64,000 nucleotides of DNA from Catajapyx aquilonaris (GCA_000934665.2 KZ538242.1:1-64000), one strand, 5' to 3'; shown: positions 2,653 to 63,549, counted from the stretch's first letter. Numbers and translations: made by a program. The notes: generated by a model from the letters alone, not told the origin.

Positions 2653-5600
2653 ATGTCTCCAGTCACCCTGGAGTCTCTGATGGAAGTGTCTCTAGGCAAC
2701 AGGAGGATTCTGGAAGGGTTGATGTCACGAATGGACTGGTGCCAGGAGGCCATCGGGAGGGTGGAGGGGTGGATGAAGAAGAAGAAGAAGAAGGGAGGGA
2801 GGGATGAACCAGCAGATACACAAAGCTGCGGACAAGGTGAAGCACAACCATGTTATTCCGAACATTATGTAAGGGTGTGCATCGGATATTAATGCGTCTT
2901 GCGTTCCAGAAGTTGCTTCAGGCCAGTCCCTTCCCATCGAGTTTGTTTCTATGGACACTGGAGATGCAGGTAGCGAGTCAATGCCTGCGTGTGACATTGA
3001 GGAGGAAATAAAAGTGGAGGAAGAGGAATGGGAAGAGGAGCAGGTGAGGACAAGGGTAGGACATGAAGGATCATGTCCTGATGGACTCCGGCTCAAAGTT
3101 GTAATTGGTTTTTGATTCACCTTCGTCTATAAATCCTGCTATAGCCTACTAGCATAGCATTGCTGTCCATCGACACTGGTAAGCATAACCACACAATTTA
3201 AGTCAGCACTAAATTACGACATTTTGGACTCCACTTGTAAATAGCATGATTACTTGTACTTTAAAATGTTGAGTAGAAATTGATGCAGGACAATAAAAAC
3301 TAGAAATATTCATTCAAGAATTTTTGCCCCATTGTGCTCTATGGGAGATCTGACTGTCATGTAATTCAATCACTGGTTATGCAGCAAGTGTTTATTGGGT
3401 ACACTTGATTGGAAACATTGTTTGTAATAAGGTCCTGGGATAGTTAAAAAAATATATTTTAAAGCGCCTGTTACTGCCAGTAACTTGGTTAGTCAATTGA
3501 ATTAATTGTTGTTCTTTTTTAGGACAGATGTTGTAGAGACTTGGAAGCAGAGGCAGTCATAAACATCAGTGAAATTGCTGCCCTTGTTGGCAATGCTGAT
3601 TCAGAAGCTACATCATGTGATCTTCCAGTCATTGGAGGAGTTCATTCCTGTGGGATTCAGGAATCGCACCTGCTTCAAGAGGGAACAGTGAAGCAAGAGA
3701 CGGGGACGGAGAATGAGTCATGGAGCCAGGTACGGTGTGTTTACTTGATTACTGGAGGATTTGGAAGCCATTAGAAGTCAGATTGACCCAACCTCATTCT
3801 GAGAAAATGGAACTTCTCTAGCTTTCATTTGTATGTTATGGTACCAATAAGATGACTCCTTTCGACCAATGTCTTTGTCTGATTAAGCGTGCCATTACTT
3901 GAAGATTTTAATGTCCATGACAGCTCTAAAGCAATGACAATTGAAGACAGCCATGTTTGACAATCACCTCCTCACTTGATTGTGCAGTGTTTGTGTAATG
4001 TACATTTCACATTTCACAGTGAATATTTTGTCGAATGCTCCATATATCTGGAGATCTTTGTTGATAATGTTGTCCGGGAATGCTCCCAAAATTGTTAACA
4101 ATAGTTTTAATGACAAATGATTTAGGGCCTGTTTCACCAAGCCCGGTTTTCATAAAAACCCCTGTTCTTTCGGAAAATCCCTATTCTATTTGCAGGGATT
4201 TTCCGAAAGAACCGCGGTTTTTATGAAAACCTGGCTTGGTGAAACCGGGCCTTATGATTGTTTCCATGAGACAAACTCTGCTGTAAACAAAGTCAAACAT
4301 GTAACTGAAGAATGAATAAGGCAATCATTATACAGGGTGGTTGGTAAATGGCGCCCAATCTTCAGGTAGCGAGATTCCTTGTGAAAAACCAGTATATGGA
4401 AGTGAAGGTCCTATTGCTCTACCATCTACAAATCTCCTTTTCTCTGTAATTTTACTTCAGGCCTCTACTTCCGCCTCTACTTCCTGGGAGAACACTGGGT
4501 CCATCAAAGTTGGGGAGATTCCATTAGAGGCGAGTGTTTCACATTATTTTTGAGCACATGAGCCGGTGTTTGCTGCAACTGATGTGAATAGAACTTATGT
4601 GAACAAGAGCAGGAATATATTCTCTAGAAGTCCTATTTAATATTGCAGGTTGATGAAACAGAAACGGTTGAAGTTGGTGACCTGACCTTGCGTTTGAATG
4701 TCTCCACCGATGAACATGCTCCATCTGCTCACTCAGCTGGTGATCCTGGTTGTGGCTCAAGTCGGAACAAAAACCAAAGGCGACAAAGGAAGGTATGTTT
4801 CTCTTGGTGTTAGGCCAAAACTAAGTGTCCAGTTGCCAAAATTTGGCAAAAGTTAAAGTGGTTAGTGTGGTAAATGCAGCTGGGAGTGGTAGGAAGGGGA
4901 GCAACATCTTACGCCAAAGGGGTAAAGTGCAGACTCTTAGCAAGGAGGTGACGCCCTGAGCTTGCCTGAGCGGCGTTATTGGGAATTAAGTGGAACAGGA
5001 GTTGGTTTTTTTGGGGTTTCCATCTTTTTTTTGTTGAAAAGGCCACAGATTTCTCAAAATGCTATTGTTCTTGATCACAACTTTTGATCAACTTAAAACC
5101 TGGAATGTTCATTCCCGCCTGCATTACTTATAGCGCAAGAAACTAATGCAGCCAACTGAAACAGAGAGTCCCAATGACACTGATGGCTTCTCTGCTGAGT
5201 ACCAGCAGGGCACTTCTGGTGCTTTGGATACAGTGAAAAGAAAGGAGACGCCAGGAAAGAAATGGCGTCAGTGTGATCAATGCTCATATAAGACTCAGGA
5301 CAAAAGTAACTTCAGCAGGCATAAAATTGTTCACAGAAGTCATGAAAAGCCTTTTGGTTGCACTGGCTGCGGAAAGAGATTTAAGACAAACAGCACCTTG
5401 CAGTTGCATTATCAGGGAGTCCATCTTGGTGTGAAGCCTTTCTCTTGTGACATGTGTGATAGGAAGTTTAATAGGAGGTGGACTTTGGAGGAGCACAAGA
5501 TGACCCACACTGGCAAGAGGCAGCATTCATGTGAAGTGTGCAAGAAATCCTTTACTCTAGCTAGGAAATTGAAGTCTCACATGAAACTTCACACGGGAGA

Positions 5601-5769
5601 GAGAGAGTTACACTCTTGCTCTCAGTGTGGCCGAAAGTTTGAGCACAAATTTAGATTGGTTGCCCATATGAAGACACACACTGGTGAAAAGCTGTTCTGT
5701 TGTGACATATGCCAGAAGAAGTTTTCTCTTCTTAGTTATGTTATTCGTCACAAGAAATCCCACGCATAA
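2653..5769 (+). CDS. Complete head + six-finger C2H2 ZNF gene; exons 2653-2836, 2874-3043, 3523-3729, 4461-4529, 4649-4792, 5134-5769 (~469 aa)
   Basis: Exon lengths 184+170+207+69+144+636 = 1410 nt join in frame without stops. Introns are GT-AG except a GC donor at 4530. Intron 1 is only 37 nt. Confidence 0.85.
4125..4251. mobile_element. Palindromic MITE, PIF/Harbinger-like
   Basis: TIRs gggcctgtttcaccaag / cttggtgaaaccgggcc, an almost fully hairpin body, and TTA flanks. Confidence 0.8.
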
Positions 5770-6622
5770 TCAAGGCCACAGAGTTGCGCTATGTGCCGTA
5801 ACACATTTTCAGCCTTGTTTTGAAATATCACATGCTAATGCATGCTGGTGTCAAGTCATTTCATTGCAACTTGTGTCAGAAAATGTCTTGGGATTCCTTT
5901 GTATTATTGAGATCATTCAAATGATGTTATTTTGATATCTGGTTGAACCTAACCATGTTTCTTCCTCAACGTGGATCCAAAGTTACAATAAAAAGCAGGA
6001 AGAGTGAAAAAAAAACTTAAGATTTACATATTTGAACATTTTGAACCTATAAATGTGTCCATTAGCAACTAATCATACATCACGTCCTATACCTGCACTT
6101 ATCTTGCAGTGAAACCAACTGTTTCCTCCTTCAAGCGCCATGTGTAGAGGTCATAATATGCAGCCGTGAACAGTACATGACTGGCAGGGAGGAACAGAAG
6201 GGTAATTTCACTGCATGGTAAGCTTGGTAGAATGTAATTTTAATTACAGGTGACATGAAGATAACAAGTGACTACACTTTCATACTGAAACTGTAGAATT
6301 CATATGTACATTCTTAAAATTTAAAGTCAGTGAGCAATTGAGCACATGGCCCTCGTAAAACTGGTCTCCCCTGTCAAAACTTTGGTGCATTTGGTTTCTA
6401 TCTTCTGCCATGGTTCATTCTGTTTGACGGGAGAATTTTTTGCCATTCTATTGTAATTTTTTCAGCCCACCTTTCGTTCCTGCAACGCATAAATGTACTG
6501 TATGTGTAGGGCAATTTCTGATATTTCATTGTTTATTTTTTGTGTAATCAGTTATAAAAGAAGATTAAAAGTCCTGCAGTAACCTTGTTAGGCAATTGAA
6601 TAAAATTAATTCTTATTTTTAG

Positions 6623-7630
6623 GGGAGCTGCTATAGAGATTTGGAGGCAGAGACATCCAAAAACATCAGTGAAATTGCTGCCCCTGTCGGCAATGCAGAT
6701 TCAGAAGCTACATCACCTGACCTTCCAGTCATTGGAGAAGTTTTTTCTTGTGGGATTCAAGGATTGCAAGAGGGAACAGTGAAGCAGGAGATGGGCATGG
6801 AGAATGAGTTATGGAGCCAGGTATGGTCATTGCTTGATTACTTCAGGAGGTGTAAGCAAAAATGTACTTTTATCGTAGCTTCTTGGCCTAAACCTCATTC
6901 TGAAAATATGCCACTTTTTGTGAGTTGCGATTAGCTGCGAAAGTGATTTGAATGCTCATTCCCACCTACATTACTTTTGAATTCTTTGTAGCACAAGAAA
7001 CTACCGCAGCCAACAGAAACAGATGGTCCAACCAACACTGATGGCTTCTCTGTTCTGTACCATGGGAATCCTGGTGGTTTGGAAATGGTGGAGATGCCAG
7101 GAAGGAAATGGCATCAATGTGGTAGATGCTCATATAAGACTGAATACATTTCTAACTTCAACAGGCATAAAATTGTTCACAGAAGTGGTGAAAAGCCTCA
7201 TGGTTGCACTGCTTGTGAAAAGCGATTTACATCAAGGCACTCCTTGCAATCGCATTATAAGGCTGTCCATCTTGGTTTTAAGGCTTTCTCTTGTGAAGTG
7301 TGCGATAGGAAGTTTCGCGAGAAGAGGCAGTGGGAGAACCACAAGATGACCCACACCGGCATGAAGCCGCTTTCCTGTCAAGTGTGCAAAAAATCATTTC
7401 CTCGTGCTAGACTATTGAAGCATCACATGCAATTTCACACTGGAGAAAGAGAGTTACACTCTTGCTCCATTTGTGACAAATGGTTCGAGTTCAATTCTGA
7501 TTTGGTCACACATGTGAGGGTCCACACTGGTGAGAAGCCTTATTGTTGCGACATATGCCAGAAGAAGTACGCTCATCGTTCCAGCTTAAATAATCACAAG
7601 AAGAAAGATCACTCTGGCGCAAGGTCCTAA
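6623..7630 (+). CDS. Headless C2H2 ZNF cassette; exons 6623-6820 and 6992-7630; 6 intact fingers
   Basis: Both exons are open and have phase-0 acceptors. There is no promoter block or head exon between 5769 and 6623. Confidence 0.75.
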
Positions 7631-8134: not shown

Positions 8135-9323
8135 GGAAGCTGAAATAGGAACATGGAAGCAGAGACAATCAAAAACATGGGTGAAATTTCTGGCCTTGTT
8201 GGCAATGTTGATTCAAAAGCTTCTGCATCCTGGGAGACCACTGGGTCCGCCAAAGTTGAGGGGATTCCATTAGAGGCAAGTGTTTTTCACATTATGATTT
8301 AGCACATGGTCCTCATAAAGGAGTAAAGATGCGGAAACAATTTTCTGTAAGTGATGTGAATAGAACTGATCAGAAGAAGGGCAGATTCACTAATAGTTCT
8401 TGCATATTGCAGGTTGATGAAACAGAAGAGAAGGTAATCGATGACCTGACCGTGTGTTCGAATGACTCCAGCGATGATCATTCCCCATCTGCTCCCTCAG
8501 CTGGTGATCCTCTTCGTGAATCAAGTCGGGGAAAAAACCAAAGGCCACAAAGAAAGGTACGTTTGTCTTAGTGTTAGTGTTAAGTAAATCAGAGGCCAAA
8601 CCCAACTTATTAAAAATCAGGCGCTTTTGCCGATTGACTTTAACATCAACTCCCATTGCCCCACCTGTACTACTATTCAATTCATTGCAGCACAAGAAAC
8701 TACTGCAGCCAACCACAACAGATAGTCCAAATGACACTGATGGCTTCTCTGATCAGAACCATGGGACTTCTGGTGCTTTGGATACAGTGAAGGGAAAGGC
8801 GATGCCGGCGAAATGGCACCAGTGCGATCTATGCTCCTATAAGACTCAAAACAGTAGAAACTTCAACAAGCATGAAACTGGTCACAGAAGTCATGAAAAG
8901 CCTTTCGGTTGCGCTGCTTGTGAGAAACGATTTATGACAAACCGCTACATGTGGTTGCATTATCAGGCTGTACATCGTGGTGATGCTTCTTTTTCTTGTG
9001 AAGTGTGCCATAAGAAGTTTAGCGAGAAGAGGAATTTGGAGGAGCACAAATTGACCCACACTGGCAGGAAGCAGCATTCATGTCAAGTGTGCAAGAAATC
9101 CTACACGCTAGCTAGGCACCTGAAGTATCACATGCAAATTCACACCGGAGAAAGAGAGCTAGACTCTTGCACCCACTGTGGCAAAGGGTTTGAGCGCAGA
9201 TGTCACCTGATTGTACATGTGAGGGTCCACACTGGTGAGAAGCCCTATTGTTGCGACATTTGCCAGAGGAAGTTTGCTTATCGCTCTACCTTTCTTCAAC
9301 ACAAGAAAACCCACTCGGGATAA
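8135..9323 (+). CDS. Headless C2H2 ZNF cassette or pseudogene; exons 8135-8275, 8413-8556, 8691-9323; 6 fingers
   Basis: The finger exon is intact. The first exon has TGG>TGA at its third codon, followed by an in-frame ATG at 8153. No head lies upstream. Confidence 0.65.
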
Positions 9324-10061: not shown

Positions 10062-12058
10062 ATGTCTCCAGTCACCCTGGAGTCTCTGATGGAAGTGTCT
10101 CTAGGCAACAGGAGGCTTCTGGAAGGATTGATGTCACGAATGGACTGGTGCCAGGAGGCCATCGGGAGGGTGGAAGGGTGGATGAAGAACAGAGGGAAGG
10201 AAGGTACGCATGACGCATATGAACAAGGGTGTGCGTCGGATATCAATGCGTCTTGCATTCCAGAAGTTGCTTCAGGCCAGCTGCTTCCCACCGAGTTTGT
10301 TTCTGTCAACACTGGAGATGCAGGCTGCGAGTCAATGCCTGCAAACATTGAAGAGGACATAAAAGTGGAGGAAGAGGACTGGGCATCGCAGCAGGTGGGG
10401 CCGGATCAAGTGCCGATAGCGCCTGAAAATAAAAAGTGCCTCTAATCTTCTTCGTCAATTGAATAAAATTGTGTTCTTATTTATTTAGGAGAGCTGGAAC
10501 AGAGACTTTGAAGCAGAGACAGCCAAAAACATCAGTGAAATTGCTGCACTTGTCGGGAATGTTGATTCAGAAGTTGGACGTTCAGTAGGTATGACACATT
10601 CTTTACTGTCGCACCTGCATGTTAGAAGGCGCGTAGGACTACTGGAAATGAAACCATGCTTTAATATGTTCCGATTAGTGTTGTTAATTATTCTTCTAAT
10701 AAGTTTCATAATATGCTGAGCATGAACCGTTCCCAAAAGTTGGGAAGTATCATTTGGACCAAACAGTCAGAGGTGGTCAGAGCAATTTTGGGTTAATGTG
10801 TGGAGTCAAACTGGATGCTCTTAAATGATCCGCTCTGTGTGCCACCTGAATCAGCCATTTTTCTGTGTTCATTTGCAGGTGGAGCGGCTTCCTCACTTTC
10901 TGCAGCCTTGGAGAACACCGAATCCGTCAAACTTGAGGAGATTCCATTAGAGGTAAGTGTTTCACGTTACAATTTAGCTGGTGGCAAAAGAGTCACGGTG
11001 AGAAAGCAGTTTGCTATTAGTGATGTGAATAGGACTGATGAAAACAAGTGCAGGGACAGATTCACTAATAGTTCTATTGAATATTGCAGGTTGATGACAC
11101 AGAAAAGGAAGAAATCGGTGACCTGATCTTGCATGTGAATGACTCCAGCAATGAACATGCCCCATCTGACCACTCAGCTGGTGATCCTGGTTGTGGCTCA
11201 AGTCAGAAAATCAACCAAAGGCAACAAAGGAAGGTATGCTTCTCATTGTGTTAAGCGAATCTAGACCTAACCTAATTGATGGAAAAGAAGGGTTTTATGC
11301 CATAGCATGAACTTAACATGAATCTAAACGTGAACAGCATTGGTGTAATATCACACCTTTCACCAGAATAAATGACTGCACTGACACCTCCATTACTTTT
11401 GGATTTCTTGTAGCACAAGAAACGAATGCAGCCCACTGACACAGAGAGTTCAAATGACTCTGCTGAATACCAGGGCACTTCTGGTTCTTCGGATACGGTG
11501 AAAGAAAAGGAGATGCCAGGAAAGAAATGGCTTCAGTGTGATCAATGCTCATATAAGACTCGAGACAATAGTAACTTCAGAAGGCATAAAATTGTTCACA
11601 GAAATGACGAAAAGGCTTACTGTTGCACTGCCTGTGGAAAGAGATTTACGTCCAACCGCAACATGCAGTTGCATTATCAGACTGTCCATCTGGGTGTTGC
11701 CCCTTTCTCTCGTGAAGCGTGTGATACTGAGAGGAAGTTTAGTGAGAAGAGGAATTTGGAGGAGCACAAGACGACCCACGCTGGCAAGAAGCAGCATTCA
11801 TGTGAGGTGTGCAAAAAATCATTCATTCTAGCTAGGCAATTAAAGTGTCACATGCAACTTCACACTGGACAACGAGAGGTACACACTTGCTTCTATTGCG
11901 GCAAAGAATTTAACTACAAATGTCACATGGTTGAACATTTGAGGGTCCACACTGGTGAGAAGCCACATCGCTGTGACATATGCCAGAGGAAGTTTGCTCA
12001 TCGTTCCACCTTAAATAATCACAAGAAAACGCACAAAGGAGTGACCACTGCTACTTGA
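10062..12058 (+). CDS. Head + C2H2 ZNF gene; exons 10062-10394, 10489-10588, 10879-10952, 11090-11233, 11414-12058
   Basis: The exons join in frame. Finger 3 is damaged (FSREACDTERKF: first Cys lost plus a 2-aa insertion). Confidence 0.82.
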
Positions 12059-12875: not shown

Positions 12876-13958
12876 GGGAGCTGGACCCGACACCTGGAAG
12901 CAGAGACAGCCAAAAACATGAGTGAAATTGCTGCCCTTGTCGGCAATGTTCATTCAGAAGATGGACGCTCAGGAGGTGTGGCGCATTCTTTAATGTCCCA
13001 CGTGCATGTTAGAAGGGAGGCAGGCTAATTGGATTTAAAACCATGCATTAATATGTGCCAATAGCAGTGTTATTAATTAACCTTTTAATAAGATTCATAA
13101 AATTTGCTAAGCAGCAGCTTTGGCAAAAGTTGGGAAGTGTCATTAGAACCAAGCAGGAATAAACTGTCAGAGGTGGTCAGAGTAGTTTAGGGTTAATCAG
13201 TGGAGTCAAACTGGATGCTCCTAACTGATCCGCATTTTGTGCCATCTGAATCAGCCATTTATATGTGTGACCTTCCAGGTGGAGCAGCTTCCTCACCTTC
13301 TGCAACTTGGGAAAACACTGATTCCATCAAACTTGAGGAGATTCCATTAGAGGCAAGTGTTTCACACTATAATTTAGCACCTTGCCCTTGGAATGGTGCT
13401 TTGGAAATGGTGAAAGGAAAGGAGATGCCAGGAAAGAAATGGTACCAGTGTGATCTGTGCTCATATAAGACTCAAGACAGATCAAACTTCAGCAGGCATA
13501 AAATTGATCACAGGAGTGATGGAAAGCCTTTCGGTTGCACTGGTTGCGACAAGAGATTTATGACGAACCAACGCTTGCAGTTGCATTACCAGGGAGTCCA
13601 TCTTGGTATTAAGCATTATTCTTGTGAAGTGTGTGATACGAAATTTTGTGATAAGTGGATATTGGAGGACCACAAGATGATCCACACTGGCAAGAAGCAG
13701 CATTCATGTCAAGTGTGCAACAAATCTTTTACTCTACCTAAACATTTGAATTATCACATGAAACTTCACACCGGGGAAAGAGAGCTACACCCTTGCTCCA
13801 TTTGCGGCAAAGAGTTCGTATGCAAATCTCAATTGGTTATTCATATGAGGATTCACACTGGCGAGAAGCCGTATTGTTGTGACATATGCCAGAGAAAATT
13901 TGCTCAAAGTTCCAGTTTAATTGATCACAAGACAACCCACATAGGAGCAAGGTCGTAG
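12876..13958 (+). CDS. Headless C2H2 ZNF cassette; exons ~12876-12975 and 13279-13958, preceded by a partial exon 2 at ~12230-12324
   Basis: ORF 13200-13958 has six intact fingers. There is no promoter block or exon 1 between 12058 and 12230. Confidence 0.75.
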
Positions 13959-17600: not shown

Positions 17601-17784
17601 GGAAAGAGAGCTACACCCTTGCTCCATTTGTGGCAAAGGGTTTGTGCGCAGATACGACTTCATTATTCATATGAGGACTCACACTGGTGAGAAGCCGTAT
17701 TGTTGTGACATTTGCCAGATGAAGTTTGCTCAACGTGGTACCTTAACTCATCACAAGAGAACCCACAGAGGAGCACGGTCATAG
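14695..17784 (+). CDS. Complete head + six-finger ZNF gene; exons 14695-14848, 14902-15071, 15486-15692, 15998-16057, 16211-16354, 17140-17784
   Basis: All exons are open and phase-compatible. Intron 1 is 53 nt, and there is a GC donor at 16058. Confidence 0.87.
16457..16617. mobile_element. Palindromic MITE, Harbinger-like
   Basis: TIR aggccatttcacaaaaaaatgtcgc with TAA duplication. The empty site catgaatcttaacatgaac is at ~52410. Confidence 0.85.
16640..16993 (-). mobile_element. Decayed mariner element with a transposase C-terminal remnant
   Basis: The minus-strand peptide WPHDSGPIDNYHLFEPQKKHLAG..FFRSGMKNFVSLW resembles the mariner YSPDLAPSDYHLF region. TIR tgcattactttttgattcaccctc. Confidence 0.65.
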
Positions 17785-25200: not shown

Positions 25201-25317
25201 CATATGAGGATTCATACTGGCGAGAAGCCGTACTGTTGCGACATATGCCAGAGGAAGTATACTCATCGTTCCGGCTTAAATAATCACAAGAAAACGCACA
25301 AAGGAGCAAGGTCGTAG
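22226..25317 (+). CDS. Head (MAAPVTLESL variant) + six-finger ZNF gene; last two exons fused (24613-25317); 22-nt intron 22377-22398 required
   Basis: ORFs 22157-22414, 22365-22586, 22681-, 23677- and 24607-25317 match the family exons. Confidence 0.75.
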
Positions 25318-30344: not shown

Positions 30345-32649
<2,305 letters not shown>

Positions 32650-43800: not shown

Positions 43801-44106
43801 AAGTTTTATAAGAGGGGGAATTGGGAGGAGCACAAGATGACCCACACTGGCAGGAAGCAGCATTCGTGTCTAGTGTGCAAGAAATCATTTTCTCTAGCTA
43901 GACATTTGAAGTATCACATGCAAATTCACACTGGAGAAAGAGAGCTACACTCTTGCTCCGTTTGTGGCAAAGGGTTCGAGTTCAAATCCGACTTGGTTGC
44001 ACATATTACGGTCCACACTCGTGAGAAGCCGTATTGTTGTGACATATGCCAGAGGAAGTTTGCTGATCGTTCTATCTTAATTCGTCACAAGAAAACCCAC
44101 ACGTAA
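40821..44106 (+). CDS. Head + six-finger ZNF unit; body exons intact (last two fused, 43378-44106) but the exon-2 acceptor is lost
   Basis: ORF 43372-44106 has six fingers. The head/exon-2 junction reads gtgtgat|ggtgtgca, with no AG and out of frame. Confidence 0.65.
42479..42563. mobile_element. Tc1/pogo-like MITE
   Basis: TA|cagtaaaacc..tataacact ... agtgttata..ggttttactg|TA. Absent from the paralog at ~26635. Confidence 0.75.
42584..43053. mobile_element. Non-autonomous piggyBac-like element with a duplicated right end
   Basis: TTAA|cccttaactacgtaggtgg ... ccacctacgtagttaaggg|TTAA. Confidence 0.85.
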
Positions 44107-48900: not shown

Positions 48901-49072
48901 AGAAAGAGAGTTACACAGTTGCACTCATTGTGGGAAAAAATATGAGCACAAATACAACTGGCTTTACCATATGAGGACTCACACTGGTGAGAAGCCCTTT
49001 TGTTGCGACATTTGCCAGAAGAAGTTTGCTCGTCTGGATGACTTAACCGAGCACAGGAAATCCCATACATAA
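45914..49072 (+). CDS. Complete ZNF gene with a divergent head (MSPVTLESLMEVSLRNERLLECLVSRMDWCQEAIWRLQVWM) and 6 fingers
   Basis: Intron 1 is a ~47-nt GT-AG intron. Linker exons and terminal exon 48440-49072 are open and in phase. Confidence 0.82.
46389..46554. mobile_element. MITE (GGTGCGTTTACATGTGAGCGATTTGAC family)
   Basis: TIRs aggtgctttcacgtacgagcgatttgac / gtcaaatcgctcacatgtaaacgcacct. Duplicated at 50862-51028. Confidence 0.75.
46617..46730. mobile_element. Palindromic MITE
   Basis: TIR gggtggtattttcgt / acgaaaattccaccc with ATA duplication. An identical copy is at 51088-51201. Confidence 0.75.
47506..47662. mobile_element. MITE
   Basis: TIR gagtgcgtttacatgggact / agtcccatgtaaacgtactc with CAT duplication. 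The empty site gggtactccatgtctg is at ~51915 and ~57450. Confidence 0.85.
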
Positions 49073-53300: not shown

Positions 53301-53444
53301 AGTCACACTGGGGAGAAGCGGTATTGTTGCGACATTTGCCAGAAGAAGTTTGCTCGTCTGGATTACTTCACCCACCACAAGAAATCCACACATAAGCAAT
53401 GTCCTGGAGTTCTCCCGTGTCTGATCAAACATTTGCTGCCTTAA
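50399..53444 (+). CDS. Complete ZNF gene with a chimeric head and 6 fingers
   Basis: Intron 1 is 35 nt. The exon-5 donor is GT at 52039. The terminal exon corresponds to ORF 52776-53444. Confidence 0.8.
50862..51028. mobile_element. MITE, duplicate of 46389-46554
   Basis: Near-identical sequence at the same intron position. Confidence 0.75.
51088..51201. mobile_element. MITE, duplicate of 46617-46730
   Basis: Identical sequence at the same intron position. Confidence 0.75.
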
Positions 53445-54501: not shown

Positions 54502-57500
54502 ATGTCTCCAGTCACCCTGGAGTCTCTGATGGAAGTCTCTCTAGGCAACAGGAGGCTTCTGGAAGGGTTGATGTCACGAATGGACTGGTGCCAGGAGGCC
54601 ATCGGGAGGGTGGAAGGGTGGATGAAGAAGGAGAAGAAGCGTGGAAGGGAAGGTACGCATGAAGGAGGAACAAGGGCGTGTGGATCGGATATCAATGTGT
54701 CTTGCATTCCAGAAGGTGCTGCAGGCCAGTCCCTTCCCACCGAGTTTGTGTCTGTCGACACTGGAGACGCAGTCGGCGAGTCAATGCCTGCCTGTAACAT
54801 TGAAGAGGACATAAAAGCGGAGGAAGAGGATTGGGGAGCGGAGGAGGTGAGGTCAGCCGGGGATGCAGGTTTAGGTCCTGATAAACTGAAATCGAAAGTG
54901 TTTCAACTGTGTTAATCAATTGAATAAAATTTGTTCTTGCTTTTTAGGTGAGATGTTATAGAGACTTGGAGGCAGAGAAAGCCAAAAATTTCAGTGAAAT
55001 TGCGGCGCTTGTTGGCAATGTTGATTCAGAAGTTGGACATTCAGCAGGTATGACACATTCCTTAACGTCTTACATGCATGTTAGAAGGTATGTAGGCCTA
55101 CCGGAATGAAAACTATGCATTAATCAGTGCCAATTACAGTGTTGTTAATAATCCTATGAATAAGTTTCATATTTTGCTGGGCATGAACCTTGTCCTGAAT
55201 TAACTAGGAAGTATCATCTGGACCAAGCAGGAATATACAGTCCGAGGTGTTCAGAGCTGTTTAGGGTTCATCTTTACCCCCTTTTGGAGTCAAACTGGAT
55301 ATGCGTAACTGACCCCCTTCTGTGTGCCATCTGACTTCCATTTTTCTGTTTGCACTTGCAGGTGGAGATGATTCCTCACCTGATCTTCCAATCAATGAAG
55401 AATTTCATTCGTATGGGACTCAAGAGCTTCAACAGTGGGCATTGAAGCAGGCAACGGGCACGGAGAGTGAGTCATGGCCTCAGGTATGGTCATTTCTTGT
55501 TTACTTGAGGAAATGGAAGCCCAAATTGGCTCACTTCAGCTAATCTTATTCCGAGCAAATGCATTCTATTCAGTTTCGATTTGTACAGCTGCTAATGCGA
55601 TTCTTGGATTTCCTCCTATTGTTATGGTACTGCATTTCTGACTATATGATTATGAATATCCATCTTTCTGGGATTTTTCCTCAGGTCTCCACTTCTGCAA
55701 CCTGGGAGAACGCTGAGTCCACCAAAGTTGAGGAGATTCCATTAGAGGCTAGTGTTTCACATTATGATTTAACACTTGGTCATCGTAAAGGAGTAAAGAG
55801 GAGGAATCAGTTTGCAGGAAGTGATGTGAATGTAACTTATGAGAAGAAGAGCAGATTCACTAATAGTCCTATTGAATATTTCAGGTTGATGAAACAGGAA
55901 AGGTTCAAGTCATTGACCTGACTTTGTGTGTGAATGACTCCAGGGATGAACATGTCCCATTTTTTCACTCAGCTGGTGATCCTGGTTGTGGATCAAGTCG
56001 GGAAAAAAACCAAAGGCCACAAAGGAAGGTATGTTTCTCATGGTGTTAAGTGAATCAGGGACCAAACCCAACTGCTTATGTGCCAACAAAGCTTAAGTGA
56101 CGTAGGGACACGTGATTCATCCCAATGAGTCACCACAGTTGGAAAAGTGCACTGGAGTGGAACTTCCCGACAAATACTGGAAAAGAGAGCGCCTATATTA
56201 AGAAGCGGATAACGGCGCTCTCTTGCACTCTCATCCGATGATGGGGCTATCCGGAGCCTGTCAGGTCGGATTGTAGAAATTGCAGTCAAGAAATTAAAAG
56301 GAACTAGGAAAACCCTCACTGCTCGCATTTTCCTAGGGCGCTGGCCTAGAAAACCACTCTCTTCGCTCGCTCTTTTCTAGGCCTGCGGCCTGCAGTGCCC
56401 ACCATATTTTCAATCGCTTCGGACTTATATTGCCAGTGATGATGCCCACCCGTTCCTCTGTGCATTCACATATCTGTGATTCCCTATCCTGCGACCAATC
56501 TGCAATCCCTCCTTTGCATTGGCTGGGAAATATACATTTTCCCATCGCAACATACCCGTACCTTTGCAATTTTGAAAAACCCAAATTTATTATTGTATGA
56601 ACAGAAATCCACAACCTCTACCGCCTCTACTCGCATGCACTCGCACATGTATCTAAATAATTATATGCACCCTTTCGGACCACATTTTTCTAACTGCTCA
56701 TAACTTCCCTTTATAAACAGCCAATGGAACTTGGCAGTGCCTGTATTAGATCAGTGGTTCCCAACCTGGGGGTCGCGAAGCCTTCTCCGTGGGGGTCGAG
56801 GGTGGCCGTGATTATTTTAATTCTATTCTCAGTTGTCAAGGATATTGCTATCTAATGAAGCATTTGAGACACTTCCCCCTTTCCTCTTCGCTGGTCGTAA
56901 AACCGCAAAATGAGATATTCCGATGTTTTAAATGTACTACTGTATACATATTCTGCTTTAAATAATATTTCATCGAAATTAGAAAATAATTCCCTAGATT
57001 TTTAGTGACCAGGTACTGACCCTTAGATTTTTAGTTTGTCTTCCGAAAAAAGTCTGTTATAATCTTTGTATGCGAGAAAAACTAACTTTTTTCGGACTTT
57101 GCTTTGTTTTAGCCATGCACAGACAATCTGCACCATGATAATCGGGAGTAGAGTGTAATGCCAGAGGGAACAGAACAAAATGTATTCGTGAAAGTAGTCA
57201 CCCGTTGCATTATCCCATGCACTTGAAAAATATCTAATCTACTTTCCCAATGGAACAATGGCCGAACTCCAAAATACAAATTTCGGCCCCTGCTTTGCAT
57301 GTGGGTCCTGGGGAGTGAAAATCGCAGGATAGGAGGCGATGGCGATTTCAGGCTTCTACCCTTTACTTCCGCATGTGTCCCTCAAATGGTTTACAAATTT
57401 AATCACCACCTGTGTCAGTTAACTCCCAGTGTATGACAGTTAAATTATGGGTACTCCATGTCTGATTTTATTATTACCGGTCTTCATTTATCTGTTATTT

Positions 57501-57982
57501 CGCTTCAGGCCTCCACTTTATCAACTTGGGAGACCACTGACTCTGTCAATGTTGAGAAGATCCCTTCAGAGGCAAGTGTTTCACATTATAATTTAGCACA
57601 TGGCCCTCGCAAAAGAGTAAAGAGAAAGAAGCTCTTTGCTGGAAGTCCTTTCTCTTGTGAAGTGTGTGATCGGAAGTTTTATAGGAAGAGATATTTGGAG
57701 GAGCACATGATGACCCACACTGTCAAGAAGCAGCATTCATGTGAAGCGTGTAAAAAATCCTTTACTCTACCCAGACATTTGAAGTATCACATGCAAATTC
57801 ACACCGGAGAAAGAGAGTTACACATTTGCTCCATTTGTGGCAAAGGGTCCGTGTCCAACTCTAAATTGGTTGAACATGTGAGGACTCACACTGGTGAGAA
57901 GCCCTTTTGTTGCGACATTTGCCAGAAGAAGTTTGCTCGTCGGGATGACTTAATAACCCACCACAAGAAATCCCACACATAA
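54502..57982 (+). CDS. Rearranged ZNF unit: head and linker exons, a ~1.3-kb foreign insertion, then a second exon 5 fused in frame to fingers 3-6 only
   Basis: ORFs 54403-54915 and 57458-57982. The junction gctctttgctggaagt|cctttctcttgtgaa joins intron sequence to finger 3. Confidence 0.6.
56095..57395. mobile_element. Composite foreign insertion, including a hAT-like end (CAGTGGTTCCCAACCTGGGG at 56752)
   Basis: Not homologous to any unit. It has short inverted ends agggacacgtg / catgtgtccct and no clear target-site duplication. Confidence 0.45.
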
Positions 57983-58739
57983 GCAATGCCATAGGGTTGT
58001 GCCACGTCTGATGAAACATTTGCTGCCATAACTCTTTGAAATCGCCATTGGTGTTATGCCTTCTTACAATCAGTGCAACTTGTGTCAGAACATGCATTTA
58101 TGCAGATCATACCTGAGGAAACATGTGAAAGTCATTCCCGATGGAAGATATGGTGTTGCATTATTTGTATTTCACTAAGCAAGATTATGCAGTCCCTTTA
58201 TGTTCATGATATCCATTCAAATACTTCATTTAATATTTTGTGGAGTGATCTCAGTGGATTGGGGCCATTAGTGCCATCCACGTTTCATGGCAAAGAGGAC
58301 TAACTGACTATTTATTTGGAAATAAATTGCGGTTGTGTGAATAACGCTATTGTTTCAGAGTTCAAAGTGGGAGGAATTACCTAATGTGTTGTATTTATTC
58401 TAGGTTTAGACAAAGGCTGCCTTTTCATGCTATGTAGCCATGGCAAGATTAATCCATCAAAATGCTTTCAACAATTATTAAATTCCATTGACAGCAGAGG
58501 TCGGAACGCACCCTACGAACTGTTTTTCCAAACGGCGATAGGAACACGCCCTCTTAAACCCTATCCAAGATGGCGACCGTCTCTTTCCGTTAAGAAGACT
58601 GTTCCTCTGAAGATTTCCTTCCATTTCCGCCTCCTTTGGACCCCCTTCCTTCAGATCCAACTCCAGGATTTGACTGGCATCATCTGGTCTTCCCTTACCG
58701 ACATCAAAACCTGTCTGGAGACAAAGAGGTGCACAAGCC

Positions 58740-61700
58740 ATGTCTCCAGTCACCCTGGAGTCTCTGATGGAAGTGTCTCTAGGCAACAGGAGGCTTCTGG
58801 AAGGATTGATGTCACGAATGGACTGGTGCCAGGAGGCCATCGGGAGGGTGGAGGGGTGGATGAAGAACAGAGGGAAGGAAGGTACGCATGACGCATATGA
58901 ACAAGGGTGTGCGTCTGATATTAATGTGTCTTGCATTCCAGAAGTTGCTTCAGGCCAGTCTCTTCCCACCGAGTTTGTTTCCGTCAACATTGAAGATGCA
59001 GGCAGCGAGTCATTGCCTGCGTGTAACATTGAAGAGGACATAAAAGTGGAGGAAGAGGATTGGAGAGCGGAAAAGGTGAGCACAGTGGGATGCAGGATTA
59101 GATGCTGATAAACTGAAATCAAAAGTGTTTTTTACCTTGTTAATCAATTGAATAAAATTTGTTCTTATTTATTTAGGGGAGATGTTATAGAGACTTGGAG
59201 GCAGAGACAGCCAAACGCATCAGTGAAATTGTTGCACTTGTTGGCAATGTTGATTCAGAAGGTGGACATTCAGCAGGTTTGACACATTCCTTAATGTCTT
59301 ACATGCATGTTAGAAGGAATGTAGGCCGACTGGAATTAAAACTATTCATTAATCTGTGCCAATTAGTATTGTTACCGTATTACCTCACATAAAGCAGGAT
59401 GCTGGTGTTGCTGAGGTCAACCAGGTTTTATAAATGCGCGATCTGGTGGCTATACCAGCATGCCGGTATAAGGTCAGGTTTTCACATAAGTTACATTGAC
59501 CTCGGTTCACACTCGCTGATGGTAGCACACAAAACGAACGAAACAGTACTGCGGACCAACTGTACTAGAAGCATTCCATTCAAAAATGACAAGGATCGAA
59601 ATTACGGAAATCTACCTCGGTTATTGCGGCATGCATGTGGGGTAATATGGTGATACTGAAGCACTGTATACAGAGGTGCATCAGATATTAATGCGTCTTG
59701 GATTTCGGGACTTGCTTCAGGCCAGTCCCTTCCCACCGAGTCTGTTTCTGTCAACACAAGAGGTGAAAGCAGCGAGTCAATGCCTGTGTGTAAGATTGAA
59801 GAGGATATAAAAGTGGAGGAAGAGGATAGGGGAGTGGAAAAGGTGCTTATAAACCGAAATCAAAAGTGACAGTAACCTTGTTAATCAATTGAATAAAATT
59901 TGTTCTTGCTTTTTAGAGGAGATGTTATAGAGACTTGGAGGCAGAGACAGCCAAAAACATCAGTGAAATTGCTGCGCATGTGAGCAATGTTGATTCAGAA
60001 GTTGGACATTCAGCAGGTATGACACATTCCTTAACGTCTTACATGCATGTTAGAAGGTATGTAGGCCTACCGGAATGAAAACTATGCATTAATCAGTGCC
60101 AATTACAGTGTTGTTAATAATCCTATGAATAAGTTTCATATTTTGCTGGGCATGAACCTTGTCCTGAATTAACTAGGAAGTTTCATCTGGACCAAGCAGG
60201 AATGTACTATCGGAGGTGTTCAGAGCAGTTTAGGTTTAATCTTTACCCCCTTTTGGAGTCAAACTGGATATGCGTAACAGACCCCCTTTTGTGGGCCATC
60301 TGACTTCCATTTTTCCGTTTGCACTTTCAGGTAGAGATGATTCCTCACCTGATCTTCCAGTCAATGAAGAATTTCATTTGTATGGGACTCAAGATCTTCA
60401 AGAGTGGACATTGAAGCGGACGACTGGCACGGAGAGTGAGTCATGGCCCCAGGTATGGTCATTTCTTGTTTACTTGTGGAAATGGAAGCAAAAATCGGCT
60501 CACTTCAGCTAATCTTATTCTGAGCAAATGCATTCTCTTCAGTTTCGATTTGTTAGCTGCTAATGCGATTCTTGGATTTCCTCCTATTGTTATGGTACTG
60601 CATTTCTGACTATATGATTATGAATATCCATCTTTCTGGGATTTTTCTTCAGGTCTCCACTTCTGCAACCTGGGAGAATGCTGAGTCCACCAAAGTTGAG
60701 GAGATTCCATTAGAGGCTAGTGTTTCACATTATGATTTAACACTTGGTCATCGTAAAAGAGTAAAGAGGAGGAATCAGTTTGGAAGAAGCGATGTGAATG
60801 GGACTTATGAGAAGAAGAGCAGATTCACTAATAGTCCTATTGAATATTTCAGGTCGATGAAACAGAAAAGTTTGAAGTCACTGACCTGACCTTGCGTGTG
60901 AATGACTCCAGTGATGAACATGTCCCATTTTTTCACTCAGCTGGTGATCCTGGTGGATCAAGTTGGGGAAAAACGCAAAGGCCACAAAGAAAGGTATGTT
61001 TCTCATGGTGTTAAGTGAATCAGGGACCAAACCCAACTGCTTATCTGCCAACAAAGCCCATAAGTGGCGTCTAAAACCGCCACTGTTTCTAGTCTTATAA
61101 AACGGCTGCACTGGCCCATAGATTCAATTTCATCGTGAGACTTGGGATTGATACCTGCATGTCTCCCTGAATGGTTCACTTTCATGTGCCATGTGACCTA
61201 CTTTATAACAATTAGCTCCCACAAAAGCCGTTCTCACCTACATTACTTTTGAATTCTTTGTAGTGCCAGCAACTAATGCAGCCCTCTGACCCAGAGAGTT
61301 CAAATGACACTGATGGCTTCTCTGCTGAGCACCAGGGGACTTCTGGTGCTTTGGGTACAGCTAAAGGTAAGGAGATGCCAGGAAATAAATGGCATCAGTG
61401 TGATCTATGCTCATATAAGACTCAAGACAGCGGACACTTGAAAAGGCATCAAATTAGTCACAGAAGTAGTGAAAAGCCTTTTGGTTGCACTGCTTGTGAA
61501 AAGAGATTTTCATCTAAGCAATACATGCAGTTGCATTATCAGGCTGTCCATCTTGGTGTTGCTCCTTTTTCTTGTGAAGTGTGCGATAAGAAGTATTTTG
61601 AGAAGAAGAAATTGGAAAAGCACAAGGCGACCCACACTGGCAAGAAGAAACTGCCATGTGGACTGTGTGAAAAATCCTTTACTCTGACTAGACATTTGCA

Positions 61701-61908
61701 GTATCACAGGCAACTTCACACCGGAGAAAGAGAGTTACACTTTTGTACTCAATGTGGCAGAGGGTTCGGCTACAAATCTCACTTGGTTGAACATGTGAGG
61801 ACTCACACTGGTGAGAAGCCGTATTCTTGTGACATTTGCCAGATGAAGTTTGCTCAACGTGGTACCTTAACTCAGCACAAGAGAACCCACACAGGAGCAA
61901 GGTCATAG
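58740..61908 (+). CDS. Head + six-finger ZNF gene with an internal duplication of exons 2-3 (second copy ~59675-60017)
   Basis: ORF 58740-59108, two copies of the DLEAETAK exon (~59178 and ~59918), and an intact terminal exon 61264-61908. Confidence 0.78.
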
Positions 61909-63016
61909 AGTTGCCCCATGTCTGACGAAACAATTTGCTTTGTTTGAGTTAATGCACATTGGTGTTAAGTCATTTCAGTGCAACTTGTGTCAGAAAATGT
62001 ATTCTTGCAGTTTTTACCAGAAAAAAAAACATGTAAAAGTCATTCCCCATTGAAGACATGAATTTGTACTATTTTTAAAGTTTGTGCTGATGAGAGTCAT
62101 TCAGATAATGTTATTTTGATATGTAGTTGACTTACATCCATGAGTTGATGTTGCTGTCTCAGGCAGGATTTCTTTTCTTTTTTAAAATAATTGTGGGGTA
62201 GTGCTTCTGACCCCTTCGGTATACAAGCACTTTGACCCTTTATTTATTTTTTACTGATCGGTCATATAATACCGACGTTACTTTTCATACTAAAACTGTG
62301 GAATTAATGTGTAAGCAATTAATTGAGTGACCATTACTGCCCTACACTTTCAAGTGCAAGGACTGGATCCTTTGCTTGCAGTGTGAACAATTGAAATATA
62401 ATATTATATCTGACAGTGAGTACCATCATTCTAGGATTAGCTATACCCACCTAATTGTTTGATAAGGAAATTTTTTTGCCATTCCAGTGTAGCTTAATTA
62501 AATTTAAAAAAATAACTATTCATGAGTTTATTCCTGCCACACATATACATTGAAGGTCAGAGAGAGAGTGACTGACTGTGATTGGCACACTTCATTGATA
62601 TGAAAATTTGCAAAAAAAAAAAAAAATCAATAAAAATATTCCATAAAAATTTCAGTGTCACTTGGGTCAATCGTTAAATTATGTCACACACTGGGTTATT
62701 AATGAACATTAATAAATTCAGAGAATTTTAAATATCTGGTGCAGCATTTCTAGTGGTTCTGTTTCCAACGCTGAACACACCGGTCGGAAGGCACCCTGCG
62801 AACTGTTTTTCAGTCGGCGATAGGAACACGCCCTCTGGAACCCTATCCAAGATGGCGACTGTCTTTTACCGTTAGAAGCACGTTCCTTTGAAGATTTCCT
62901 TCCATTTCCCCCTCCTTTTGGACCCCACTTCCTTCCCCTGTCCATCTCCCTTCTGATCCAGCATCATCTGGACCATATCATCCGAACATCTGAGGACTCT
63001 TAGAGGAGCACAAGCC

Positions 63017-63549
63017 ATGTCTCCAGTCACCCTGGAGTCTCTGATGGAAGTGTCTCTTGGCAACAGGAGGCTTCTGGAAGGGTTGATGTCACGAATGGAC
63101 TGGTGCCAGGAGGCCATCGGGAGGGTGGAGGGGTGGATGAAGAAGGAGAAGAAGCGTGGAAGGGAAGGTACGCATGAAGGAGGAACAAGGGTGCGCATCA
63201 GGAATTAATGCGTCTTGCATTCCAGAAGATGCTTCAGGCCAGCTGCTTCCCACCGAGTTTGTTTCCGTCAACATTGGACATGCAGGCAGCGAGTCATTGC
63301 CTGCGTCGTATAATGCTGAAAAAGAAATAAAAGTGGAGGAAGAGGATTGGGGAGTGGAGCAGGTGAGCGCATGAAGGATCACGCACTGATATACTAAAAA
63401 TTGAAAGCACCTGTAACTTAGTCAATTGAATAAAAAGCTTGTTCTTATATTTTTTAGGAGAGCTGTTATAGAGACTTGGAAGCAGAGACAGACAGAAACA
63501 GCTGTGAAATTACTGGAAATGTTAATTCAGAAGGTGGATATTCAGCAAG
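63017..63549 (+). CDS. 5' part of a further ZNF unit (head, exon 2, exon 3), running off the window end
   Basis: ORFs 63017-63208 and 63156-63374, plus exon 3 at ~63459. Candidate 22-nt intron at 63168-63189. Confidence 0.75.

Follow-up and report, generated by a model that had tools for sequence, protein, structure and literature searches.

A tandem array of C2H2 zinc-finger genes in Catajapyx aquilonaris with a near-invariant N-terminal head, a candidate interaction helix

Gene content and exon structure of the array

The 64,000-nucleotide stretch of Catajapyx aquilonaris DNA analyzed here (the window) holds paralogous multi-exon C2H2 zinc-finger (ZNF) genes arrayed in tandem, with approximately 4.3 kb per unit. 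The initial annotation described 16 copies of a head of ~41 amino acids spanning positions 2653-63208. A six-frame fuzzy search of the 64-kb window with up to 12 substitutions identified 15 copies, all on the plus strand, at the exon starts listed below, except that the matches in copies 5 and 10 begin at 22229 and 36825. Both the count of 16 and the span proved right, because the remaining copy (ATG at 28226) turned up in a DNA alignment. An in-frame ATG is kept in all 16 heads, which contain neither a stop codon nor a frameshift; the sole indel is an in-frame one-codon deletion that removes W29 from copy 28226. As had been stated, the head is identical or nearly so in most copies: nine of the 16 lie within one substitution of the consensus (six identical, three with a single change), and the worst carries eight. 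Copies 22226 and 36822 start with MAAPV, and copy 28226 with MAPV. The head exons are as follows:

2653..2836, + strand: head exon copy 1, from ATG to putative phase-1 donor AAG/GTGAAG; L19I
10062..10203, + strand: copy 2, donor AAG/GTACGC; head equals consensus
14695..14848, + strand: copy 3, four substitutions in residues 35-41
18981..19128, + strand: copy 4, D28G
22226..22376, + strand: copy 5, MAAPV start
25809..25956, + strand: copy 6, unit of exons 1-2 only, without finger exon
28226..28385, + strand: copy 7, degenerate, W29 lost in frame; unit of exons 1-4 only
30345..30477, + strand: copy 8, D28G
32988..33135, + strand: copy 9, equals consensus
36822..36975, + strand: copy 10, MAAPV start; unit without finger exon, piggyBac fragment downstream
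40821..40974, + strand: copy 11, three substitutions
45914..46076, + strand: copy 12, most divergent, eight substitutions
50399..50561, + strand: copy 13, four substitutions
54502..54652, + strand: copy 14, equals consensus
58740..58881, + strand: copy 15, exon 1 of the reference gene model
63017..63167, + strand: copy 16, gene leaves the window

The window also contains 16 finger exons with four to six C2H2 fingers each, six in most copies. Fifteen are listed here and the last belongs to the reference gene model below:

1096..1824, + strand: six fingers; head of its gene upstream of the window
5134..5769, + strand: gene 2653, six fingers
6992..7627, + strand: no head of its own, six fingers
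8520..9320, + strand: no head of its own, six fingers
11420..12058, + strand: gene 10062, five intact fingers, finger 3 broken
13197..13955, + strand: no head of its own, six fingers; fused to exon-5-like sequence
17140..17784, + strand: gene 14695
21088..21717, + strand: gene 18981, five fingers by regular expression
24613..25317, + strand: gene 22226, exon 6 fused in frame
31966..32649, + strand: gene 30345
35279..35941, + strand: gene 32988
43378..44106, + strand: gene 40821, exon 6 fused in frame
48440..49072, + strand: gene 45914
52764..53444, + strand: gene 50399
57509..57982, + strand: gene 54502, truncated, four fingers

Since three finger exons (6992, 8520, and 13197) are headless, the gene of a fourth (1096) starts upstream of the window, the units of three heads (25809, 28226, and 36822) lack a finger exon, and unit 63017 exceeds the window, only 12 head-to-finger units lie wholly inside it.

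The head is the N-terminus of these duplicated genes and, as proposed, is separately encoded as their first coding exon. The simple scheme of a single effector exon followed by a single finger exon does not hold: the genes have about seven exons, with five further unannotated ones between head and fingers, as in the model of unit 58740:

58942..59075, + strand: exon 2, acidic (...DIKVEEEDW...), entered in phase 1; acceptor in 16/16 copies
59177..59276, + strand: exon 3 (..RDLEAETAKxISEIAALVGNVDSE..); a paralog's exon 2-exon 3 junction in an X5 contig
60331..60452, + strand: putative exon 4
60653..60760, + strand: putative exon 5; alternative donor 60793
60853..60993, + strand: putative exon 6
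61264..61908, + strand: last exon, linker, six C2H2 fingers, and stop; zf-H2C2_2 E 1.3e-30

The phase-1 GT donor and the exon-2 acceptor are conserved in all 16 copies. Spliced junctions are present in contigs of run X5, a second public run with the same species label whose kind is not on record. For the 10062/58740-type paralog, the contig joints match the predicted exon 1-exon 2 junction letter for letter; the exon 2-exon 3 junction, read from piece ends and the five letters between them and not from a whole contig, also fits the prediction with one mismatch allowed in the left piece. These contigs could stem from a retrocopy instead of RNA. The seven-exon GT-AG model of unit 58740 yields an uninterrupted ORF of 463 amino acids, and a splice-path search with free choice among sites found a complete GT-AG ORF of 376-484 amino acids in 12 out of 12 head-to-finger units. 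We infer exons 3-7 and their junctions on this basis. Exons 2-6 of the reference gene have no meaningful Pfam match, the sole row being Peptidase_U49 on exon 4 (E 0.12), which is far below its cut-off.

The 5' region of the units carries a conserved motif, with 15 exact matches vs. 0.28 expected, located 157-183 nt upstream of the head ATGs; one example is:

58566..58577, + strand: conserved upstream motif CAAGATGGCGAC

In Drosophila lola and mod(mdg4), one set of N-terminal exons serves several finger cassettes. The headless cassettes 6992, 8520, and 13197, which lie downstream of complete genes, resemble this arrangement, and alternative splicing could in principle join one head to different finger cassettes; however, nearly every cassette of the array comes with a head and a promoter motif of its own.

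Constraint and sequence exchange among the heads

The strong divergence of the fingers reported in the initial annotation is borne out by mean pairwise amino acid identities of 0.64 for the fingers vs. 0.91 for the head. The head is characterized by dN 0.049, dS 0.146, and dN/dS 0.33, compared with dN 0.14-0.34, dN/dS 0.56-1.34, and amino acid identity 0.52-0.73 in the other N-terminal exons, and is the most constrained segment of the protein. Within the fingers, contact positions -1, 2, 3, and 6 show dN/dS 1.06 (dN 0.586), and the other residues 0.35. All 25 residues that are invariant in the alignment of the 16 copies fall within the 41-residue head; these include residues 3-14 and C30, Q31, E32, A33, and I34.

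The constancy of residues 3-14 in 16/16 copies would also be expected if the head were a short signal and not an effector domain, for example a degron or a leucine-rich nuclear export signal in its first 14 residues. Class-1b export signals have loose hydrophobic spacing, and L6-x2-L9-x2-V12-x-L14 fits it. We consider this reading quite improbable: conservation through residue 34 exceeds the length of such signals, a motif this degenerate often turns up in amphipathic helices of any kind, and export of a family of DNA-binding factors makes no obvious design.

Another explanation places the near-invariance mainly at the DNA or RNA level, through concerted evolution or a promoter-proximal or translational element, the peptide having no special function. 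Several observations point in this direction. Synonymous divergence climbs from 5' to 3' (dS 0.15 in the head, 0.17 in exon 2, and 0.43 in the fingers); 17 out of 39 head codons (codons 3-41 examined) are nucleotide-invariant; the sequence 100-200 nt upstream shows conservation as well (identity 0.85), and 15 copies carry an invariant CAAGATGGCGRC motif there. Moreover, the 5' ends are mosaic: unit 58740 combines the upstream type of 22226/36822 with the exon-1 tail of 10062. The trees of 5' ends and fingers are incongruent, sharing the single clade 14695/45914/50399, and the respective pairwise distances are uncorrelated (r = -0.20). The mosaic ends and incongruent trees show that gene conversion or unequal exchange homogenizes the 5' end. 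However, conservation ends sharply on either side of the 41 codons: nucleotide identity is 0.93 in the head but 0.74 over the 100 nt preceding the ATG, 0.53 (gaps counted as mismatches) in the exon-1 tail directly past residue 41, and 0.75 in intron 1. A conversion tract would not stop at such boundaries. In addition, dN/dS is 0.33 in the head vs. 0.92 in adjoining exon 2 at similar dS, eight head codons vary only synonymously, codons 3-14 have just three variants over 16 copies, all synonymous, and R26 (CGA/AGG/CGC/CGG) and S25 (TCA/TCC/TCT) are preserved through multi-step synonymous changes; the absence of frameshifts and stops from all 16 copies, with the one indel in frame, argues likewise. 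A mainly nucleic-acid-level explanation is therefore unlikely. Thus, the near-invariance claimed initially holds insofar as the head stands far above the rest of the protein in constraint, and is in part the product of sequence exchange among 5' ends. Judged by its substitution pattern, the head is real coding sequence kept near constant by purifying selection, with gene conversion contributing to its uniformity.

Predicted helix and searches for relatives

The description of the head as an unrecognised domain, free of KRAB, SCAN, BTB, and ZAD, agrees with our searches, which found no significant relative in the Pfam, PDB, protein, metagenome-contig, or viral-contig libraries. Pfam returned no family for three head ORFs at E<=1 or for 16/16 exon-1 peptides at E<=10, and the single cysteine of the head leaves no CxxC pairs. 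In the PDB, the best E-values were only 0.046 for a single head sequence and 0.75 for the profile. A phmmer search of 1.84 billion representative proteins gave no match on the head; its sole match (E 1.9e-4) is a low-complexity repeat protein aligned to the acidic stretch. A word-indexed search of 5.8 billion proteins found no head relative at the 'longer' or 'near' lengths, scans of metagenome and viral contigs found none either, and no head-bearing protein occurs in the libraries searched, which include fish proteomes (teleost ZNFs, cyprinids among them).

The best PDB profile match is Moloney MLV p15E, with head residues 6-24 aligned to chain residues 18-36 (11/19 identities, E 0.75), and the second is the Gag-derived Arc protein (E 3.3). 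Since SCAN was derived from a retrotransposon capsid, there is precedent for a head captured from a mobile element, here as a heptad-repeat fragment of a gamma-type retroviral envelope TM reused as an oligomerizing helix. Such an origin is very improbable: both E-values are what chance would give, the PDB yielded no further envelope TM chain at E<=10, Pfam, which includes the TLV_coat family, has no match for 16/16 heads at E<=10, the one cysteine leaves no CX6CC motif, and the viral and metagenome contig scans contain no relative.

AlphaFold2 applied to the 16-sequence alignment predicts a single helix at residues 6-48 with mean pLDDT 93.6, so that the head would make up most of a single long amphipathic alpha-helix. 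The heptad residues had been read correctly (L6, L9, S13, N16, L20, L23, M27, C30, I34, V37, and M41). This 43-residue helix, predicted with high confidence, also suits the alternative that the head is chiefly a coiled-coil module through which paralogs form homo- or hetero-oligomers, and not a dock for a separate cofactor. The 3-4 spacing of L6, L9, L20, L23, M27, I34, V37, and M41 is in line with this, as is the broad stripe made with flanking M10, V12, L19, M24, A33, and W40, which suits bundles; 8 out of 11 a/d positions do not vary among the 16 copies, and near-identity would allow all paralogs to pair with one another. However, with S13, N16, and C30 in the a/d core and four glycines (G15, G22, G35, and G39) along its length, the helix is not a textbook coiled coil, and a/d invariance is not clearly above that of other positions (17/30). 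Furthermore, the ZNF dimerization domains ZAD and SCAN are reported to be divergent among paralogs and often homodimer-specific, not kept near-identical (PMC7913770). We regard self-association as the chief function as possible but doubtful.

Proposed role of the head

We propose, at roughly even odds (about 0.5), that the head is a shared protein-interaction module, most likely for docking a common cofactor, with self-association possible too. The common cofactor is favored because the head is near-identical among paralogs. Every paralog would show the same helix to the same partner, and the fingers would carry each paralog to a different DNA site, with contact residues free to change; in addition, the helix may form coiled coils with copies of itself or with those of sister paralogs. 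Partner binding, oligomerization, an effector output (co-repressor recruitment or other), any anti-transposon role, and the restriction to one lineage that the initial annotation envisaged are putative.

The KRAB domain with TRIM28 is a precedent for a common cofactor. As in the KRAB-ZNF genes of tetrapods, C2H2-ZNF paralogs form tandem clusters, and all fingers are carried by one exon, with a constant N-terminal non-finger module encoded separately. Contact residues likewise show dN/dS ~1 on a constrained scaffold, and the module varies less than the remainder of the protein, which a common partner would lead one to expect. The array genes differ in having no Pfam KRAB match, one helix of ~43 residues instead of an A/B box of roughly 75 amino acids, five extra unannotated exons separating the head from the fingers, and fingers fixed at six with position-wise orthology, whereas KRAB-ZNF arrays vary in finger number. 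The ZAD and SCAN families likewise carry N-terminal protein-protein interaction domains, both mediating dimerization, on expanded clustered C2H2-ZNF genes; however, SCAN is a bundle of several helices and ZAD binds zinc via four cysteines, whereas the head has one cysteine and a single predicted helix, and neither Pfam model matched.

The FiNZ genes of cyprinid fish are a lineage-restricted ZNF expansion defined by a short N-terminal sequence unlike known domains and with its own exon (PMC10547256), and the acidic exon 2 of the array recalls their glutamate richness. FiNZ is described as 28 amino acids long, Glu-rich, encoded in a two-exon gene, and unique to cyprinids, which sets it apart from a 41-residue head with 5 Glu in a gene of about seven exons (PMC10547256). 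As the predicted helix is unlike any known domain, the head may be a new route for fast-evolving DNA-binding proteins into common cell machinery.

Heads, finger exons and gene models of the array

The head, a near-constant 41-aa N-terminal peptide that starts the first coding exon, recurs in the window far beyond chance. A fuzzy search of all six frames, with up to 12 substitutions tolerated, returned 15 copies, all on the + strand, with no substitution in six of them, one in three and a maximum of eight; neighbouring heads among these copies are 2643-7409 bases apart. A 16th, weaker copy surfaced when one unit was compared with the whole window, and DNA alignment of all 5' regions located it at ATG 28226, with the frame kept and the W29 codon gone. 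The count of 16 heads, their coordinates and the heptad positions given in the initial annotation are thus all correct. The in-frame ATG is kept in 16 out of 16 heads, the start being MAAPV in units 22226 and 36822 and MAPV in unit 28226 (units are named by the position of the head ATG, and finger exons by their own start). The + strand also carries 16 C2H2 finger ORFs with 4-6 fingers each (13 six-finger, two five-finger and one four-finger) and, besides these, one single-finger fragment. These finger counts and the Pfam matches to zf-H2C2_2 (E 6.2e-29 and 1.3e-30) and zf-C2H2 (E 8.9e-22) place them among the C2H2 zinc finger proteins (ZNFs), which are defined by tandem C-x2-C-x12-H-x3-4-H fingers with TGEKP-type linkers.

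In the 5'-region alignment, exon 1 closes 3 to 20 codons past residue 41, at a GT donor, and is followed by a short intron 1 and a conserved acceptor, TTCCAG/AAG. A phase-1 donor compatible with the exon 2 frame is present in all 16 copies; AAG/GTACGC is used in eight copies, AAG/GTGAAG is on offer in six, and the chosen intron 1 is 54-89 nt long. The long read-through ORFs of some copies are explained by an intron 1 that happens to be in frame there; in other copies the frame is held only through splicing. The model of the reference gene, unit 58740, has seven exons with canonical GT-AG borders, phases 1, 0, 1, 0, 0, 0 and an uninterrupted ORF of 463 aa, and its exon set is repeated in unchanged order in most units. 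The gene models contain 5-7 coding exons, and in all 12 units with both ends inside the window the head ATG and the finger-exon stop can be linked in one complete ORF (376-484 aa); these paths come from a homology-guided GT-AG search that was free to pick among nearby sites, and they demonstrate compatibility, not proof. The incomplete units are as follows.

Incomplete units of the array (all on the + strand)
Heads 25809, 28226 and 36822: truncated units, head exon present, without finger exon
Finger exons 6992, 8520 and 13197: without their own head
Finger exon 1096: gene start upstream of the window
Gene 63017: extends past the window end

Several further features of the units were observed. 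Three head-less partial units (6623-7627, 8132-9320 and 12244-13955), which retain exons 3-7 or 5-7 and have neither head nor exon 1, lie downstream of the complete genes 2653 and 10062, and may serve as alternative 3' cassettes or be pseudogenes. Assembly gaps (24 N at 9649-9672; a single N at 18406) leave the borders of units around 9.6 kb uncertain. Exon 6 is joined in frame to the finger exon at 1096-1824, 24604-25314 and 43369-44103, and exon-5-like sequence is joined to it at 13197-13955, 31948-32646 and 57437-57979. Exons 3 and 4 are contiguous in several units and separated by an intron of 0.3-1 kb elsewhere. Given these fusions and the variable exon 3/4 gap, intron presence differs among paralogs, through intron loss or insertions converted to introns. 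Exons 2 and 3 are present a second time inside unit 58740 (59711-60030); this extra copy is probably not spliced in because its exon-2 acceptor is mutated (TTCGGG versus TTCCAG). Several units also show long antisense ORFs (187-240 aa) that overlap exons 1-2 and probably arise as a side effect of purine richness on the sense strand.

Antisense ORFs overlapping exons 1-2 (- strand)
9845-10405
25607-26293
30068-30787
54240-54902
58481-59131

The motif CAAGATGGCGRC, which we take to resemble the YY1 core site, occurs at 15 sites, all on the + strand, between 2470 and 62859 (e.g., 58566-58577), where 0.28 would be expected by chance. In each case a head ATG follows 157-183 nt downstream, and the 16th head copy has a version with two mismatches. 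The motif opens a conserved 7-codon upstream ORF (ATG GCG ACC GTC TCT TTC CKT TAA), likely located in the 5' UTR.

Splicing was further assessed with X5, a sequencing run with the same species label and no library kind on record, contigs of which were placed on 14500-34499 alongside one DNA run. The first joint ends at 19108, continues with CAGAGGGAAGGA and resumes at 28466, reproducing every letter of the exon1-exon2 junction predicted for a 10062/58740-type paralog. The second ends at 33332, continues with CTGGA and resumes at 19427, and, given one mismatch in the left piece, agrees with the exon2-exon3 junction predicted for that paralog type, as judged from the placed piece ends and CTGGA and not from the contig's own letters. 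The 10062/58740-type paralog falls outside 14500-34499, and thus the contig is split across the nearest copies. X5 depth peaks at 2.7-4.3 in bins covering finger exons and their immediate 3' flank, and is zero in several intron bins. X5 thus appears to derive from transcripts; were it DNA, its joints would come from a retrocopy and would still record splicing. Within 14500-34499 the junction evidence consists of these two joints, exon1-exon2 and exon2-exon3, neither of which joins the head to the fingers.

Constraint and sequence exchange along the genes

As the initial annotation had proposed, a constant head is attached to divergent fingers, with a mean pairwise amino-acid identity of 0.91 versus 0.64 among the 12 modelled genes.

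Table. Mean pairwise amino-acid identity, and substitution rates, by gene segment (12 modelled genes)
Segment; aa identity; dN; dS; dN/dS
Head; 0.91; 0.049; 0.146; 0.33
Exon 2; 0.71; 0.158; 0.172; 0.92
Exon 3; 0.73; 0.140; 0.251; 0.56
Exon 4; 0.64; 0.217; 0.281; 0.77
Exon 5; 0.69; 0.167; 0.262; 0.64
Exon 6; 0.52; 0.344; 0.257; 1.34
Pre-finger linker; 0.68; 0.203; 0.281; 0.72
Fingers; 0.64; 0.220; 0.430; 0.51

Within the 15 finger exons compared, dN/dS reaches 1.06 at the contact positions -1, 2, 3 and 6, versus 0.35 for the other finger residues, and each contact position holds 3-8 residue types. By this comparison of contact and scaffold residues, the locus is a rapidly diversifying tandem ZNF cluster, i.e., a set of tandem paralogs in which the residues contacting DNA change in a relaxed or diversifying manner and the finger scaffold is constrained, a kind that includes the KRAB-, ZAD- and FiNZ-ZNFs.

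The uniformity of the head could reflect selection on the peptide or a process acting purely at the DNA level. Among head codons 3-41 of the 16 copies, 17 never vary, eight vary only synonymously (e.g., Arg26, encoded by CGA, AGG, CGC and CGG, and Ser25, encoded by TCA, TCC and TCT) and 14 show amino-acid changes, mostly beyond residue 21. At the nucleotide level, the head has an identity of 0.93, compared with 0.74 over the 100 nt preceding the ATG and 0.75 over intron 1; for the exon-1 tail past residue 41 the value is 0.53 when gaps are treated as mismatches. The sharpness of these edges and the synonymous substitutions favour selection acting on the head peptide and weaken the purely DNA-level explanation. 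Residues 3-14 are unchanged in 16 out of 16 copies, with three synonymous variants, and might possibly serve as a localisation or degradation signal.

Sequence exchange is a second force, one absent from the initial annotation. In the 12 modelled genes dS climbs from 5' to 3'. Unit 58740 has its upstream block in common with 22226/36822 and its exon-1 tail in common with 10062, and all four combinations of upstream-type and tail-type markers are present in the array, which points to recombination or gene conversion among the 5' ends of paralogs. The trees of 5' blocks and finger exons share only the clade 14695/45914/50399, and the 5' and finger pairwise distances are uncorrelated (r = -0.20, the truncated 54502 finger exon being included and inflating some distances). 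The rising dS, the mosaic 5' ends and the discordant trees thus indicate that gene conversion or unequal crossing-over contributes to the head uniformity. If it were mainly due to gene conversion, the array would be a clear case of concerted evolution at one gene end and diversification at the other. The stretches compared for the mosaic of unit 58740 were 58440-59000 versus 22000-22400 and 9850-10250.

Mobile and repetitive sequences were also observed in the array. Two piggyBac-type transposase fragments match DDE_Tnp_1_7 at E 3.6e-4, below the Pfam cut-off, and score 0.97 to piggyBac clusters in the Atlas. They sit in the regions of the finger-less units 36822 and 28226, which such insertions may have truncated. 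The summed contig depth of the DNA run reaches about 89,000, versus roughly 50-300 elsewhere, in bins that mark high-copy repeats interspersed in the array.

Mobile and repetitive features
29348-29767, +: piggyBac-type transposase fragment
38796-39290, +: piggyBac-type transposase fragment
16501-17167: high-depth bin
27173-27839: high-depth bin
28507-29840: high-depth bin
33843-34499: high-depth bin

Predicted fold and relatives of the head

AlphaFold2, supplied with a 16-sequence alignment, predicted a single helix at residues 6-48 (mean pLDDT 93.6, pTM 0.56), which amounts to a prediction from sequence propensity because the alignment is shallow. An oligomerising coiled coil would be a continuous helix that has a hydrophobic core at the a/d heptad positions and associates with itself. 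The 3-4 spacing is present, with L, L, S, N, L, L, M, C, I, V and M at the a/d positions; the core has S, N and C at three of 11 positions, four glycines fall within the predicted helix, and the hydrophobic stripe is broad, with M10, V12, L19, M24, A33 and W40 in addition. A two-copy prediction of the exon-1 peptide scored 0.07 (mark 0.32) and carries no weight either way.

The absence of ZAD CxxC pairs and of KRAB, SCAN and BTB motifs, suggested previously, was confirmed by Pfam searches and by the single cysteine of the head. No Pfam family was found for three head ORFs (E<=1) or for any of the 16 exon-1 peptides (E<=10), and exons 2-6 of the reference gene yielded nothing meaningful, the sole match being Peptidase_U49 in exon 4 (E 0.12, far below the cut-off). 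KRAB (PF01352) was not detected among the head ORFs, the 16 exon-1 peptides and exons 2-6, and SCAN (PF02023) and BTB (PF00651) were not detected in exons 1-6. ZAD (PF07776) gave no match, and the head has one cysteine (C30) versus the two zinc-binding cysteine pairs of that domain.

Across Pfam, PDB and the protein libraries, no described ZNF-associated domain matched the head significantly. A PDB search with a single ORF gave nothing below E 0.046, and the profile search returned only MoMLV p15E (E 0.75; head residues 6-24, 11/19 identical) and Arc (E 3.3). Both resemblances were set aside, since the E-values are at chance level; no other envelope chain matched. A gamma-type retroviral envelope TM subunit would show significant similarity in its heptad/immunosuppressive region followed by CX6CC; p15E was the sole hit, with no Pfam match and no CX6CC. 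A phmmer search of 1.84 billion representative proteins gave one match (P0001, E 1.9e-4), which was dropped as a low-complexity repeat protein aligned to the acidic stretch alone and not to the head. No head relative was found among 5.8 billion word-indexed proteins at 245-2000 aa or 76-244 aa, scans of metagenome and viral contigs with the head alignment gave pattern matches only, with zero confirmed, and the best ESM Atlas score for residues 1-60 of the read-through ORF was 0.79, below the meaningful level. A finger-exon search retrieved nothing but generic fish, frog and insect ZNFs, 30-51% identical. The proteins of this animal are evidently absent from the libraries, and therefore the lack of relatives means none outside this genome, not a small family. 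In the portions of the literature covered, neither the head sequence string nor a description of the head as a ZNF-associated domain occurred. Rfam gave 0 matches over the entire window. A CpG o/e ratio of 0.48 and a surplus of TpG/CpA are compatible with a methylated animal genome, no more.

A putative effector helix on clustered zinc fingers

The locus fits an already known type of gene family: clustered ZNFs that carry a constant module at the N-terminus and are confined, here putatively, to one lineage. The head module itself appears, from sequence comparison, to have no detectable homologue. The initial interpretation is supported in part: the constant, homologue-less module on clustered ZNFs stands, whereas the simple layout of one head exon plus one finger exon gives way to models with 5-7 coding exons. 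The nearest published analogue is FiNZ, a 28-aa Glu-rich N-terminal sequence confined to cyprinids and encoded in two-exon genes (PMC10547256). Going by this description, the head differs from it in length, composition and gene structure, the FiNZ exon plus single finger exon of those genes being unlike the models with 5-7 coding exons found here.

We propose that the head would be a shared protein-interaction helix exposing the same surface on all paralogs, and that six fingers, diversified at their contact residues, would carry this common helix to different DNA sites. By analogy with KRAB and TRIM28, a common partner would best fit the near-identity among paralogs. The main rival, by SCAN/ZAD logic, is self-association of the head, which would be compatible with a shared-partner role. 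Transposon control by the array would be a speculative role, put forward by analogy and from the contact-residue pattern. Taken as a whole, the reading that the head is an undescribed ZNF effector domain, which docks one cofactor or zips paralogs together and defines a fast-evolving DNA-targeting system that arose independently in this lineage, in parallel to the KRAB-, ZAD- and FiNZ-ZNFs and probably against mobile elements, has in our estimate about one chance in three of being correct.

Independent inventions that combine a constant effector with variable fingers (KRAB, ZAD, SCAN and FiNZ) are central to the policing of mobile DNA and to regulatory rewiring in animals; to our knowledge, how the non-KRAB versions act is mostly not known. 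Being short, strongly constrained, confidently predicted as a helix and without relatives, the head offers a compact test object, a peptide of roughly 45 residues. Its partner, once identified, would tell whether another lineage has arrived at this solution through other molecular means.
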